Source: Candidatus Acidiferrales bacterium
GTDB lineage: Bacteria > Acidobacteriota > Terriglobia > Acidiferrales > UBA7541
Reading direction: 5' to 3'
Length of the DNA: 64,000 nt
Assembly (NCBI GenBank): GCA_036513895.1
Contig: DATBYF010000048.1
Span: 754-64,753 of the forward strand
The position numbers were made by a program, and so were the translations under genes. Below, one piece after another: positions 60,114-63,758 of the stretch. The notes beneath the pieces are model-generated. The model was given only the letters and a program-made list of their open reading frames with translations. It searched no databases and was not told the DNA's origin. How positions within the stretch are numbered: the stretch's first letter is position 1; each line of letters starts with the position of its first letter.

Positions 60114-60245
60114 CTACCACGGGACGTGCTTGATCACCCCGGCGCGTACGAGCAACGCCGCGAGCAATGCCAGTGTCACCGCCCAGCCGTCCACGGGAAT
60201 TGCGAATCGTTTTTGCGGCTGCTCGCTTTTAACCTGTGAAGTCAT
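60114..60245 (-). CDS. 43-aa single-TM small protein MTSQVKSEQPQKRFAIPVDGWAVTLALLAALLVRAGVIKHVPW (unannotated sORF)
   Basis: Below the track cutoff. An AAGGAG SD lies 5 nt upstream of ATG 60245. It fills the cobA-yeiH gap on the operon strand. The overlapping + ORF 60034..60273 looks spurious. Confidence 0.45.
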   Translation of the reverse strand: MTSQVKSEQPQKRFAIPVDGWAVTLALLAALLVRAGVIKHVPW

Positions 60246-60277: not shown

Positions 60278-61054
60278 TCAGATCGCGGCGTCGTGATCTG
60301 CACCATCGCGGGGCGCCCTATTGATCCAAAATTCCCGGGCTGCCTGAATCGTTTCCCCGGTCACGACGCGCCCGATAATCATCAGCGCGGGTGAGGGAAG
60401 TGCGCCTTCGTTGGCTAGCCTCGTGAGTTTCGTGGTGCGAATTTGCTGTTTGCTTGATGTTGCGTTCGAGACGATCGCGCAAGGCGTGTGCTCAGGCCAT
60501 CCTGCCTCGCGCAACTGCGCGGCGACGTAGGCGTAGTCCGGTCCAGGCATGTAGATCACAACTGTTGTTTCGCTCGAGATTCCGCCCCATTGAATAGAGC
60601 GGTTCGTCGCGCCGCGATGAATGGACGTGAACAGCACCTGAGAAGCGATCCGCCGGTCCGTGAGTGAAATGCCCACGGCCGCAGCAGCGCTGGCCGCCGC
60701 CGTGATTCCCGGAACGATCTCGAACGCGACACCGGCTTCACGCAGCGCCGCGATCTCTTCGCCAGCCCGGCCAAAGATCGAAGGATCGCCGCCCTTCAGC
60801 CGGACGACCACCTGGTGTGATTTCGCGGACGAAATCAGCAGCGCGTTGATCTCGTCCTGCGTTAATAATTTGCGCCCGCAGCGCTTACCCACATTAATCC
60901 GCACGGCGTCGGGACCGGCTAAGGCCAAAACTTCGGCGCTCACAAGCGCGTCGTGCAGCACCACCCTCGCTCGCCCGAGTAACTTCAGCGCCTTCACTGT
61001 TAACAGTTCCGCATCCCCCGGGCCGGCGCCGACAAGATAGACTTTTCCGCTCAT
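60278..61054 (-). CDS. cobA: Uroporphyrinogen-III C-methyltransferase (SUMT)
   Basis: Track ORF, 258 aa, with VYLVGAGPGDAELLTVKALKLL and VVRLKGGDPSIFGRAGEE motifs. It overlaps the upstream gene by 4 nt. Confidence 0.9.
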   Translation of the reverse strand: MSGKVYLVGAGPGDAELLTVKALKLLGRARVVLHDALVSAEVLALAGPDAVRINVGKRCGRKLLTQDEINALLISSAKSHQVVVRLKGGDPSIFGRAGEEIAALREAGVAFEIVPGITAAASAAAAVGISLTDRRIASQVLFTSIHRGATNRSIQWGGISSETTVVIYMPGPDYAYVAAQLREAGWPEHTPCAIVSNATSSKQQIRTTKLTRLANEGALPSPALMIIGRVVTGETIQAAREFWINRAPRDGADHDAAI

Positions 61055-61683
61055 GCGACTTTCCCGTTCGAGCCGCTGTTGTTTGATCGGCTGTCGCGCG
61101 ACGCGCGCAAGAATTGTTCGAACATCTCGTTGCTCGCGAGGGCGTGCAAAATTTTCCTTGTCTCCTCGGGGTTCTCACTCTCCGCGCGCATCGCGGCGCG
61201 AACCGCGCCAAGCCATTCGAGCCACGCTTCGTATTCCGACCCGAATTGCGCTTTCAGTTCGCGCCTCAATCGTTGGGCAAGCGCTGGGCTGAATCCAGCG
61301 GTAGAAATAGCGATCTGGAGCGGCCCGCGGCGCACGACGGCTGGATAGTAGAAATGGCATCGTTCGGGATCGTCCACGGCATTACAGAGAATTCCTTGAG
61401 CGTCGGCCTCATGAAAGACGTCTTGATTGACGCCGAAGGCGGACGTAGCGGCAATCACGACGAAGGCTCCCGAGAGATCGCCCGGTCCAAACCTTCTCGG
61501 TGCCCATTGGAGCCTGCCCTCCTTCGCCCATGCGGAAATCGCTTCGGTCACTTCGGGTGCGATTACGCGCACTTTCGCCCCCGCTTCAAGCAGGCTGGGA
61601 ATTTTTGCTTCGGCTACTTCGCCCCCGCCAACGACGACGCACAGCCGATCTTGCAATTTCACGAACATTGGGAATAAGGACAT
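61051..61683 (-). CDS. Precorrin-2 dehydrogenase / sirohydrochlorin ferrochelatase (siroheme synthase N-domain-like)
   Basis: Track ORF, 210 aa. The Rossmann motif VVVGGGEVAEAKIPSLLEAGAKVRVIAPE is typical of CysG-N/SirC/Met8. Confidence 0.8.
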   Translation of the reverse strand: MSLFPMFVKLQDRLCVVVGGGEVAEAKIPSLLEAGAKVRVIAPEVTEAISAWAKEGRLQWAPRRFGPGDLSGAFVVIAATSAFGVNQDVFHEADAQGILCNAVDDPERCHFYYPAVVRRGPLQIAISTAGFSPALAQRLRRELKAQFGSEYEAWLEWLGAVRAAMRAESENPEETRKILHALASNEMFEQFLRASRDSRSNNSGSNGKVA

Positions 61684-61685
61684 AG

Positions 61686-63386
61686 CTAGCCCTCGACTCC
61701 GTGCGGAACGGGACCTGCGGCAAGGTCGCGCTCGAATTCTTCAGAGACACTGCCACCAAGCAGCGTGCGAATCTCATCGTTCGAATGCCGCGCGAAAAAC
61801 TGCCGCAAGTTCTCGGCTTCATGCCGGCCGGCTTGATACGCCTTCAACACGCGCTCGATCGCGTCCGGCACTTCCGCAGCGACGCACCGATATCCAACCG
61901 GCCGCGCGAACGCTTGATGCTTGCCAACAGCCCCGCCAACGCAAAAGTAGTACGCGTCCACCAGCTCGCCATCCACCTTGATCTTTTTGCCCTCGATTCC
62001 AATGTCTGCGATCCAATGCTGGCCGCAACTGTTCGGGCAACCGGTAATGTGCAGCTTCAACTGCTGATCGAACCCGGGAATCCGGTCGTCAAGCTCTTCT
62101 ACTACCCAGCGCGCGAAGCCCTTCGTTTCGGTCAGCGATAATTTGCAGAATTCGGACCCGGTGCACGCGACCGTCCCACGTGCGAAAGGGGATGCTGCAA
62201 CGTGCAATGCCGCGTATCCGAGCTCGCGAGCCACCGTTGCGGAATCCTGCTCGCGAATATTCACGAGAAGGAGATTCTGCATATTCGTCGTGCGAATTTC
62301 GCTCGAGCCGTATCGCTGCGCCAGGTCGGCTGCGACATTCATCTGTTCTGGCGTGATGCGCCCCCGCAGAACGGAGGCGCCGACATAAACGAGGCCAACC
62401 TGTTTCTGCGGATGCACACCGACGTGATCGCGATAAATGTCATCGGGTATGTTTTCTTGTTCGGCGGGATCGAGCGAGAATCCGATGCGTTGTTCCAGCT
62501 CAGCCTGAAACGATTCGGCCGTCCAGCCATGCTTCAAGAAAAAAAACTTCAGCCGCGCTTGCTCTCGGCTCTGGCGAAGAATTTCGCTGTCGCGAAAGAT
62601 TTGGGCTATGCCTCGCACTACCGGAACTACTTGATCCCAAGCAATGAACGCATTAAGCCGCACACCAAAGTGCGGGTCCGCGGAAAGGCCGCCGGCCACA
62701 CGAAGCGAAAAGCCAATTTCAGACCCGCCATTCCTTCGCCGTATGGTTGGCGTCAATCCGATGTCGTTGATTTCTGGATAGGAGCACCAGTAACAGCATC
62801 CAGTAATCGAGACTTTGAACTTCCGAGGCAAGTTGTAGAATTCCGGATTCCCGGCGAGTTCGCGATTCACTGCCAGAGCCAGCGGTGACGCATCGCAGAT
62901 TTCGTCCGCGTCCACGCCGGCGAGAGGACATCCCGTGATATTTCGCGCGACGTCGCCGCATGCGCCGGTCGTCGTCAGTCCTGCCGACCAGAGACTTTCG
63001 AGAATTTCCGGAAGAGCTTCTATTGTGACCCAGTGAAGCTGAATGTTTTGACGAACGGTCAGATCGGCGACGCCTCTTGCGTGTTGCGCCGCCAGATTCG
63101 CAATCACTCGCAACTGATCGCTGCGCAGAATCCCGTTCGGAACGCGAATGCGCACCATGAAATACGGAACGGCCTTTCCTTCGCCACCCCTGCCGCTCAT
63201 GACGCCATTTCCATCGCCCTGCGTGTAAACGCCCCACGACCGAAAGTAAGTTCCCAGCCACTCCGGCGGAATAGACGCGAATCCCTGCCGCGCAAAGCCG
63301 TGAATCTCGTCAATGCAGTCCCAAGCGTTCTTGGCCCGCTTGAGCCGTTCGACTCGCTGCGCCTTGGTTTCTTTGAGTTCGGTCAT
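61686..63386 (-). CDS. Ferredoxin-type sulfite (or nitrite) reductase hemoprotein
   Basis: Track ORF 61686..63419 trimmed to ATG 63386 (MTELKETKAQRVE...). Siroheme/4Fe-4S Cys motifs are TGCPLAG...ITGCCYWC and ACTGSEFCKLS...ITGCPNSCGQ. Confidence 0.85.
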   Translation of the reverse strand: MTELKETKAQRVERLKRAKNAWDCIDEIHGFARQGFASIPPEWLGTYFRSWGVYTQGDGNGVMSGRGGEGKAVPYFMVRIRVPNGILRSDQLRVIANLAAQHARGVADLTVRQNIQLHWVTIEALPEILESLWSAGLTTTGACGDVARNITGCPLAGVDADEICDASPLALAVNRELAGNPEFYNLPRKFKVSITGCCYWCSYPEINDIGLTPTIRRRNGGSEIGFSLRVAGGLSADPHFGVRLNAFIAWDQVVPVVRGIAQIFRDSEILRQSREQARLKFFFLKHGWTAESFQAELEQRIGFSLDPAEQENIPDDIYRDHVGVHPQKQVGLVYVGASVLRGRITPEQMNVAADLAQRYGSSEIRTTNMQNLLLVNIREQDSATVARELGYAALHVAASPFARGTVACTGSEFCKLSLTETKGFARWVVEELDDRIPGFDQQLKLHITGCPNSCGQHWIADIGIEGKKIKVDGELVDAYYFCVGGAVGKHQAFARPVGYRCVAAEVPDAIERVLKAYQAGRHEAENLRQFFARHSNDEIRTLLGGSVSEEFERDLAAGPVPHGVEG

Positions 63387-63400
63387 AGTCAAAATGTCCC

Positions 63401-63443
63401 CAGAAAAGCAAAAGCCCACCAGCCAAAATTTCTGGCGGTGGGC
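63401..63443 (-). terminator. Intrinsic-terminator hairpin inside the sulfite-reductase leader (attenuator expression platform)
   Basis: The bottom strand reads GCCCACCGCCA-gaaatttt-TGGCtGGTGGGC (7+4 bp, one bulge), then TTTTGCTTTTC. It ends ~15 nt before the sir ATG. No upstream gene on that strand needs terminating. Confidence 0.65.
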
Positions 63444-63468
63444 TTCGGAACTTCAGTTTAGATTACAG

Positions 63469-63576
63469 CTAAGTCCGGAGTCTCCTCTCGCCAGAGTTGT
63501 GGGCCATACAACACACGCAACATACGCAGCACATCTGCGTGTACCGGGAGCTTTGGCTCTGGCAAGTATTCGACAT
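63469..63576 (-). CDS. Cys-rich leader mini-ORF: MSNTCQSQSSRYTQMCCVCCVCCMAHNSGERRLRT (35 aa; internal ATG at 63534 gives MCCVCCVCCMAHNSGERRLRT)
   Basis: Read from the bottom strand: atg tgc tgc gta tgt tgc gtg tgt tgt atg gcc cac ... tag. Six Cys codons fall within eight consecutive codons, upstream of the terminator hairpin and of sulfite reductase. There is no clear SD. The long form starts close to a putative TTGACA-N17-TAGCCT promoter (63552-63614 region). Confidence 0.55.
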   Translation of the reverse strand: MSNTCQSQSSRYTQMCCVCCVCCMAHNSGERRLRT

Positions 63577-63758
63577 GAAGATTAAGGCTACGGGACGTCA
63601 CCCGTGATGTCAATCCAAAATCTGTCTCGGATTGTAAACGAAATGTAACTTCGCCGGGACATACTTTGAACAGGAATCATCCCGAGGGCCAACTTCAATC
63701 GCTGGCATACTATATGCATTCGAAGCTGTTCTGTTTAGAGCATCTTGCGATTAAGCCG

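Follow-up and report, generated by a model that had tools for sequence, protein, structure and literature searches.

A cysteine-codon-rich leader before the sulfite reductase operon of soil Acidobacteria is a probable ribosome-mediated transcription attenuator

The 64,000-nucleotide (nt) stretch of 'Candidatus Acidiferrales' bacterium contig DATBYF010000048.1 analysed here (the window) carries on its minus strand a sulfite reductase/siroheme operon, sir-sirC-cobA, whose leader contains a short upstream open reading frame (uORF) with a run of cysteine codons, followed by a GC-rich hairpin and a U-tract. We propose that this leader acts as a ribosome-mediated, Cys-tRNA(Cys)-sensing transcription attenuator of the operon, a reading to which comparative sequence analysis leads us to assign a probability of about 0.8. 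The uORF, its Cys codons, the terminator, three complementarities and the spacing of the promoter are real and conserved. All of the elements that the initial annotation of the window had listed (uORF, promoter-like element, hairpin, U-tract and complementarities) were recovered at the positions it had given.

The Cys run stands alone in the window. Among about 96,000 stop-free 12-codon windows in the six frames of the 64 kb, only seven contained at least five Cys codons, and these overlap one another and all lie at the leader, which argues that the run is more than chance and not an effect of composition. The same six-frame scan of the 64 kb revealed no further Cys-rich uORFs. For comparison we collected orthologous leaders. 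The Sir protein has hundreds of close homologues, assigned, where named, to 'Candidatus Acidiferrales' or Acidobacteriota. A scan of GTDB species genomes provided 80 sir loci (Sir identity 65-75%, nearly all Terriglobia), three look-ups added closer relatives at 81-93% identity (L081-L085), and a single scan of metagenomes for a 22-nt motif of the uORF tail added at least 120 matching contigs; all metagenome counts below are counts among the matches listed. Alignment A1 comprises 73 leaders, and other genome counts are based on 76 or 81 leaders as stated.

At least five Cys codons per 12 codons, and up to nine in some cases, were found just upstream of sir in 71 of the 80 genome loci, compared with 1-5 Cys on the reverse strand of the same regions, which served as a control. 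An in-frame Cys-rich uORF was likewise present in all 118 metagenome leaders with enough sequence, so that orthologous leaders do keep the Cys run, as the initial annotation had anticipated. A hidden Markov model built from 51 main-subfamily leaders, with the window left out, gave a single match in the window at 63536-63405(-) (E = 1.5e-10) and also matched the close relatives. No second leader copy was detected by nhmmer in the window or the 80 loci; the extra matches were the reverse strand of the palindromic terminator. Judged by sequence comparison, the arrangement is kept in at least about 190 distinct sequences from soil Acidobacteria (genomes plus the metagenome matches listed). The idea that a Cys-rich ORF and a hairpin came together between two genes by chance, for which only the short length of the elements speaks, is refuted by these comparative data and by the uniqueness of the run in the window, and its probability is negligible.

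Across the family, median uORF length is 30 codons and the median number of Cys codons is 7 (range 3-11, up to 12 in close relatives). The Cys-codon number shifts fast among close relatives: the uORF of the window has 7, that of the relative at 93% identity (L085) has 6, and the relatives at 81-82% identity have 12. Comparison of L081-L085 with window 63508-63531 shows that UGY-UGY-GCN units have been gained or lost, as though sensor sensitivity were being tuned or the repeats were slipping.

A homologous in-frame uORF with a conserved ATG and stop occurs in 76 relatives. At its Cys codons the amino acid is fixed across relatives and the third base varies between UGU and UGC. UGU accounts for 60% of the Cys codons in leaders versus 9% in the adjacent sir genes, and enrichment in rare codons is a classical trait of the sensing codons of attenuators. 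Gap runs in the uORF columns are multiples of three, except for one shared single-column event, whereas those in the spacer are not. The other two frames have neither conserved starts nor conserved stops, with a +1-frame start inside the predicted transcript in 3 of 76 leaders, and they were rejected as candidate reading frames. Gene callers place a 51-amino-acid (aa) ORF in the +1 frame over the leader, both in the window (63458-63613(-)) and in a close relative (L081:1246-1401(+), MRSLTLVGYVEHLPDRALRAQLLRVLCVLRVL...). In the window this ORF starts at the TTG of the -35 element; it is very likely an annotation error that obscures the true uORF in the Cys frame.

The tail of the uORF reads xCU GGC G.. 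GGG in nearly all leaders. Each of the five positions of its CUGGC core is near-invariant (the same base in 70-73 of 73 leaders), and this holds even for the synonymous third positions of the two codons. By contrast, the xCU codon is free to vary at its first base, which yields Ser, Thr, Ala or Pro. Frozen synonymous sites combined with a changing residue point to selection on the RNA rather than on the peptide in this region. The pattern bears on the idea that the uORF product is itself functional, a Cys-rich micropeptide that might bind metal or sulfide or serve as the precursor of a ribosomally synthesized and post-translationally modified peptide, and whose place before sir would reflect co-expression and not sensing. 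The Cys residues and a C-terminal ...SGAGRLLT motif are indeed conserved as peptide; however, the RNA-level constraint on the tail, its complementarity to a terminator arm, the intrinsic terminator straight after the ORF, a Cys-codon number that ranges from 3 to 12 even in close relatives and the preference for rare UGU codons together make this explanation highly improbable.

Hardly any probability attaches, in our judgement, to a protein- or ligand-binding RNA that governs the terminator, either TRAP-like on UGU/UGC triplets or a riboswitch, with the reading frame being incidental. The UGY triplet repeats resemble the spaced-triplet sites of TRAP-type regulators, and a terminator with alternative pairings would suit such an RNA equally well. 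Yet the spacing between promoter and ATG is fixed, relatives retain the in-frame stop, indels keep the frame, and non-Cys codons are irregularly interspersed among the Cys codons. Moreover, no conserved structured aptamer was found outside the alternative helices, and an Rfam cmscan of the leader with E values up to 10 matched no family and returned only noise (best overlap rnk_pseudo leader, 21.1 bits against a gathering score of 55, E = 0.77). Codon-level selection in the Cys run and RNA-level selection in the tail thus disfavour the micropeptide, the binding RNA and chance alike.

Most leaders (69 of 76 from genomes, 111 of 115 from metagenomes) have, upstream of the uORF, a TTGACN-N16-18-TAnnnT element that ends 6-12 nt (mode 9-10) before the in-frame ATG. 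The bases between the -10 element and the ATG are seldom Shine-Dalgarno-like; in the window, only 8 nt separate the end of the TAGCCT -10 from the ATG, with no room for a Shine-Dalgarno sequence between them. This conserved spacing without a Shine-Dalgarno sequence suggests that the uORF is read from a leaderless mRNA or one with a leader of at most 4 nt, the start being predicted, and lends support to the earlier suggestion that the mRNA may be leaderless. A simple consensus scanner picked up neither a promoter nor a terminator at the leader of the window. TAGCCT is weak as a -10 element, and the hairpin was probably missed because of its bulged stem, which is a limit of the tool and not counter-evidence; for both elements we therefore relied on comparative evidence.

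Between the uORF stop and the operon start, a free search of 81 leaders identified a hairpin with a U-tract behind it in 78 of them (-18 to -33 kcal/mol; consensus ACCCACCGCCAGA-loop-UCUGGCGGUGGGU(U)n). Within alignment A1 (73 leaders), 89% of the cells in the stem are paired and 9 of the 14 pairs show compensatory change on both sides, which bears out the expectation that orthologous leaders keep the terminator. None of 500 shuffles reached the observed values, and slid controls fell to 29-48%. A U-rich tract follows right after the stem in all 73 aligned leaders. The hairpin of the window, GCCCACCGCCAGAAA/UUUUGGCUGGUGGGC at 63443-63414(-), has a one-base bulge in its stem and a predicted energy of -23.9 kcal/mol; the subsequent CUUUUGCUUUU extends to 63404, 17 nt before the sir ATG at 63386. 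Since the gene upstream of the leader, a flavin adenine dinucleotide (FAD) oxidoreductase gene, is divergently transcribed, the hairpin belongs to a 5' leader and does not mark the 3' end of a different gene. We regard the GC-rich hairpin and U-tract as a putative intrinsic terminator before the first structural gene.

The same hairpin might act on translation, as in mycobacteria, with a poly-Cys stall controlling access to the sir ribosome-binding site (RBS) and the hairpin serving to sequester that site instead of terminating transcription. In several relatives (L029, L044, L077, L017 and L057) just 7-13 nt separate the end of the hairpin and U-tract from the sir ATG, and the purine-rich 3' arm, GGUGGG, is the sole Shine-Dalgarno-like sequence there, so the hairpin would occlude it; in addition, the experimentally studied poly-Cys leaderless small ORF (sORF) acts translationally (10.1101/834739). 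Against this stands the U-rich tract, needless for RBS occlusion but present in every aligned leader. In the window, furthermore, the hairpin ends 17-25 nt before the sir ATG with a separate GGGGA between, which leaves the sir RBS region outside the hairpin. We consider control mainly by RBS access unlikely. The two outputs are compatible, and occlusion of the RBS may reinforce termination in relatives whose hairpin directly adjoins the sir ATG.

The uORF tail (segment 2 in Table 1) is complementary to the terminator 5' arm (segment 3). In the window, UCUGGCG (63495-63489) matches CGCCAGA (63437-63431) of this arm. Over the 73 aligned leaders, the pairing between tail and arm, including a helix around the stop codon, holds in 82% of cells overall and in 89% within the core helix. 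In the stop-codon helix of the relatives, the last codons and the stop (CUGCUGA; GGACUU in the window) pair with the bases that directly precede the terminator (UCAGCA, or AAGUUC in the window), and the two helices make up one long hairpin. Predicted folds of the truncated window leader indicate that the stop-codon hairpin (63446-63477) places segment 2 beside segment 3 and lengthens the antiterminator. Compensatory changes were found at flanking pairs and in the stop-codon helix; for example, one pair occurs as UG, UA or CG, and 14 sequences have CG in place of GC. RNAalifold recovered CUGGC:GCCAG from transcripts cut before the terminator 3' arm.

The initial annotation had also proposed that GCCCAC (63504-63499) duplicates the terminator 5' arm and could capture the 3' arm. 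The duplicate is present in the window but is shared only by the 93%-identity relative (L085); other relatives read GCGCAC or GAGCAA at this place, and we rejected the pairing as a conserved element, considering it probably incidental. The uORF tail further contains a conserved Shine-Dalgarno-like GGGAGG (GAGAGGAG in the window) about 15 nt before the stop (A1 columns 120-127; window 63488-63481). It takes part in the pairings of segment 2 with both segment 1 and segment 3, and could cause ribosome pausing by anti-Shine-Dalgarno pairing.

Segment 1, the alternative partner of segment 2, lies in the 5' half of the uORF, which is complementary to the 3' half with the Cys run at the apex. This pairing had been described for the window as GCCAGAG (63563-63557) with CUCUGGC (63496-63490). 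The complementarity is there, but 7 nt proved too short a description: the pairing spans most of the N-terminal half of the uORF and, in many relatives, the AUG. Per-sequence energies of the segment 1:2 duplex have a median of -24.5 kcal/mol, and cognate pairs (-19.7 kcal/mol) exceeded non-cognate pairs (-16.3 kcal/mol) in stability, with 0 of 5000 permutations as extreme. In the minimum free energy (MFE) structure of the full window leader, segment 1 pairs with 63496-63487; the MFE of this 206-nt leader is -72.8 kcal/mol (z = -3.3 relative to dinucleotide shuffles). Two subfamilies use different sequences and registers for this duplex, CGCCAGA with UCUGGCG and CUUCGCGCC with GGCGCGGGGAG. RNAalifold on the whole alignment recovered only the terminator and no segment 1:2 pairing. 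Because the registers differ between subfamilies, consensus folding misses this duplex, and we therefore used per-sequence duplex energies and the permutation test.

The effect of ribosome position, which the initial annotation had suggested examining by masked folding, was assessed in 76 leaders, each cut just before the terminator 3' arm and folded with a 30-nt ribosome mask. The antiterminator pairing between the terminator 5' arm and the uORF tail was predicted in 64/76 leaders with the A-site at the first Cys codon of the run and in 61/76 at the third, falling to 31/76 at the last Cys codon and 10/76 at the stop codon; the folds without a ribosome contained it in 34/76. In these folds the terminator 5' arm switches between the uORF tail and a free state according to the position of the ribosome. 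The window leader behaves in the same way: a ribosome at any Cys codon of the run leads to the antiterminator, and one at the stop codon to the segment 1:2 pairing with the terminator 5' arm free.

From the sequences we infer translation of the uORF, the transcription start, termination, the kinetics and the cysteine response, which would combine as follows. Transcription would begin at, or a few bases before, the AUG of the 35-codon uORF, and a ribosome would load without a Shine-Dalgarno sequence. When Cys-tRNA(Cys) is plentiful, the ribosome would pass the Cys codons and reach the stop; segment 1 in the uORF 5' half would then re-pair with segment 2 (tail CUCUGGCG), and/or the terminating ribosome would cover the tail. 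Segment 3 would remain free to pair with segment 4, and the resulting GC-rich hairpin and U-tract would stop RNA polymerase about 17 nt short of sir. Under a shortage of Cys-tRNA(Cys), the ribosome would stall in the Cys run between segments 1 and 2 and hold them apart, so that segment 2, lengthened by the stop-codon hairpin, could take segment 3 as it emerges. No terminator would form, and RNA polymerase would enter sir-sirC-cobA, providing more sulfide for cysteine synthesis. The AUG at the 5' end is predicted to be paired with the end of the uORF in many main-subfamily members, although not in the fold of the window. In that case, reading of the Cys status would be limited to the first ribosome, the one loaded co-transcriptionally, and the leader would be a single-round sensor.

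Several observations weigh against this mechanism, in part for the family and in part for the window. A few relatives (L002, L009 and L011) keep only 3-4 Cys codons. The distance from the -10 element to the ATG fits a leader of 0-4 nt, which falls short of proving a strictly leaderless mRNA. The segment 2:3 duplex is hardly more stable in cognate (-14.5 kcal/mol) than in non-cognate combinations (-14.1 kcal/mol; 67/5000 permutations), so that support for the antiterminator comes mostly from conservation, and its covariation evidence is modest, given how little the core varies. The window leader has 24 nt between segment 1 and the Cys run downstream of it, compared with only a few codons in most relatives. 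This gap reflects an insertion relative to most family members, and a stalled ribosome would not cover segment 1; for the window, the argument consequently draws on sterics and on the inner hairpin being disrupted. When the truncated RNA of the window leader is folded without a ribosome, the antiterminator conformer has a slight energetic advantage (-44.5 kcal/mol, against -40.6 kcal/mol for the segment 1:2 conformer), and a default 'off' state would depend on folding order and not on thermodynamics. Finally, the full-length RNA of the window keeps the terminator in its MFE structure at every ribosome position, so the switch would have to be kinetic, as it is in classical attenuators.

The features of the window leader and the genes it precedes are collected in Table 1.

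Table 1. Predicted elements of the sir leader and the downstream genes in the window.
Feature	Position	Strand	Description	Basis
Sigma-70-like promoter	63585..63613	(-)	TTGACA 63613-63608, 17-nt spacer, TAGCCT 63590-63585	sequence reading
Leader uORF MSNTCQSQSSRYTQMCCVCCVCCMAHNSGERRLRT	63469..63576 (ATG at 63576)	(-)	35 codons + stop, 7 Cys codons	ORF list
Segment 1 CUUGCCAGAG	63557..63566	(-)	putative anti-antiterminator 5' strand; isolated Cys codon UGC 63564-63562	
Cys-codon run UGC UGC GUA UGU UGC GUG UGU UGU	63508..63531	(-)	6 Cys in 8 codons; apex of the segment 1:2 hairpin	
Segment 2 CUCUGGCGAG	63487..63496	(-)	uORF tail; partner either segment 1 or the terminator 5' arm (antiterminator)	
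Stop-codon hairpin	63446..63477	(-)	encloses UAG 63471-63469; GGACUU:AAGUUC; seen in truncated-transcript folds	
Segment 3 GAAGCCCACCGCCAGA	63431..63446	(-)	putative terminator 5' arm	
Segment 4 UUUGGCUGGUGGGC + U-tract CUUUUGCUUUU	63404..63427	(-)	putative terminator 3' arm, then U-tract	
Sulfite-reduction/siroheme genes	60278..63386	(-)	sir 63386-61686; sirC-like siroheme synthase 61683-61051; cobA-type uroporphyrinogen methyltransferase 61054-60278	Pfam + ORFs

Pfam assigned the genes 3' of the leader to a NIR_SIR sulfite reductase, a SirC-like siroheme synthase, a CobA-type methyltransferase and a YeiH-family protein, and neighbouring frames among sir, sirC and cobA abut or overlap. Of the 105 metagenome leaders with at least 250 nt of downstream sequence, 102 are followed by sir about 110 nt on and 3 by sirC; this 105/105 linkage indicates that the leader is specific to the sulfite-reduction/siroheme operon. 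In the three contigs concerned (L115, L169 and L203), the leader and terminator lie directly before sirC (MSLFPIFLKLEGRRCLVVGAG...), not sir: the gene order of the operon varies and the leader is retained. Two sir loci, one binned as Methylomirabilota and the other from an unclassified metagenome-assembled genome (L027 and L033), have no Cys uORF before sir. They carry instead a zinc-ribbon-like CxxC...CxxC ORF with its own terminator, ending about 130 nt before sir. The lack of a Cys uORF in these two loci argues that the leader is lineage-restricted. Between cobA and yeiH, the window contains a 43-codon ORF (60114-60245(-), MTSQVKSEQPQKRFAIPVDGWAVTLALLAALLVRAGVIKHVPW) with a hydrophobic C-terminal half and no Pfam match. 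A similar N-terminus, MSSQ.ETIPQ.KR.KFSIDAWA, occurs at the same place in the two closest relatives (L081:4637-4704; L083:4631-4701), and the product may be a conserved small membrane protein of the operon.

One relative contains a second Cys-rich small ORF, MIKIPSQCCCCTAPCAGCCRPLCI, with 7 Cys in 12 codons (L041:7065-7138(+)). A TTGGCA-N17-TATCAT element lies upstream, with 10 nt to the ATG, which is the same leaderless-type layout. About 255 nt downstream of this ORF lies a gene whose product has a CarboxypepD_reg domain (ORF from 7393; Pfam E = 5.6e-8), a domain that we take to be the typical N-terminus of acidobacterial TonB-dependent receptors, making the gene TonB-receptor-like. This suggests that more than one operon may be under Cys-uORF control in some Acidobacteria, and hints at a possible cysteine 'ribulon' in these soil bacteria.

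Classical leader-peptide attenuators (trp, his, leu, thr, ilv and pheA of Proteobacteria; the Yanofsky model) combine a codon-enriched ORF with mutually exclusive 1:2, 2:3 and 3:4 pairings. The sir leader resembles them in its short codon-enriched ORF, its four segments, the position of the putative terminator just before the first gene and its rare sensing codons; its predicted antiterminator is exclusive with the terminator, and segment 1 would sequester segment 2, the geometry being less clear-cut in the window. Unlike classical attenuators, it would sense cysteine and control sulfite reductase and siroheme synthesis, not amino-acid pathway enzymes proper, and its sensing codons are apical between segments 1 and 2, whereas those of classical attenuators lie inside segment 1. 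The two share no sequence homology, and the sir leader belongs to the phylum Acidobacteriota.

Another related system comes from Mycobacterium smegmatis, in which leaderless poly-Cys sORFs are cysteine-responsive translational attenuators (Canestrari et al. 2020, 10.1101/834739, Mol Microbiol 114:93). These sORFs are leaderless, as the sir uORF is predicted to be or nearly so. Like the sir leader, they contain consecutive Cys codons, precede cysteine/sulfur operons and have been proposed to sense cysteine by pausing; the CC-V-CC-V-CC sequence upstream of sir-sirC-cobA is such a series of consecutive Cys. In the mycobacterial case, however, an RNA duplex sequesters the RBS and there is no intrinsic terminator, whereas the sir leader conserves a canonical terminator with a U-tract and so departs from RBS sequestration without a terminator. 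The mycobacterial sORFs also come from Actinobacteria, occur at several loci per genome (the 'ribulon') and have no sequence similarity to the sir leader.

Other Cys-codon leaders have been predicted. The uORFC-8-2 motif before cysS in Rhodobacterales is a predicted Cys-codon uORF attenuator with an intrinsic terminator (Brewer et al. 2021, PMC8632094); a prediction like the sir leader, it differs in having two tandem Cys codons only, a cysteinyl-tRNA synthetase target, an alpha-proteobacterial host and another structure. Deinococcus deserti has a leaderless cysS leader peptide of 10 aa with 2 Cys, for which transcription attenuation was predicted (de Groot et al. 2014, PMC4007540). It starts at an experimentally mapped mRNA 5' end and belongs to a different phylum, while the start of the sir leader is predicted from sequence. 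Cys-codon leader peptides were also predicted before actinobacterial cys operons and cys/cbs genes (Seliverstov et al. 2005, PMC1262725); that study detected no terminator hairpins and proposed Rho dependence, and both genes and phylum differ from those of the sir leader.

Our literature search found no description of an acidobacterial sir leader or of a sulfite-reductase Cys-codon leader/uORF attenuator. In line with the initial annotation, such a leader appears undescribed for Acidobacteria, but cysteine attenuators as such were already known in mycobacteria (10.1101/834739), Rhodobacterales (PMC8632094) and Deinococcus (PMC4007540). On sequence grounds, the sir leader is a new phylum-specific family of a known switch type and not a new principle. 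Only tentatively, and with rather more doubt than confidence, do we put forward the broader joint claim that it represents the first ribosome-mediated attenuator family of Acidobacteriota, the first leaderless poly-Cys ORF with a four-segment terminator switch, a single-round sensor and a hint of a Cys 'ribulon'.

Acidobacteria, the Terriglobia among them, are some of the most abundant soil bacteria, and to our knowledge almost nothing is known about their gene regulation. The alignment of the leaders is ready for use as an RNA family model, and the annotation of the region is corrected with respect to the spurious 51-aa wrong-frame ORF over the leader. The conserved promoter-to-ATG layout adds comparative evidence that leaderless initiation can drive attenuators, and the family would extend cysteine-sensing leader peptides from Actinobacteria to a distant phylum, in classical terminator form. 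For these bacteria, the leader offers a concrete mechanism by which cysteine supply may control assimilatory sulfate reduction without a dedicated transcription factor.

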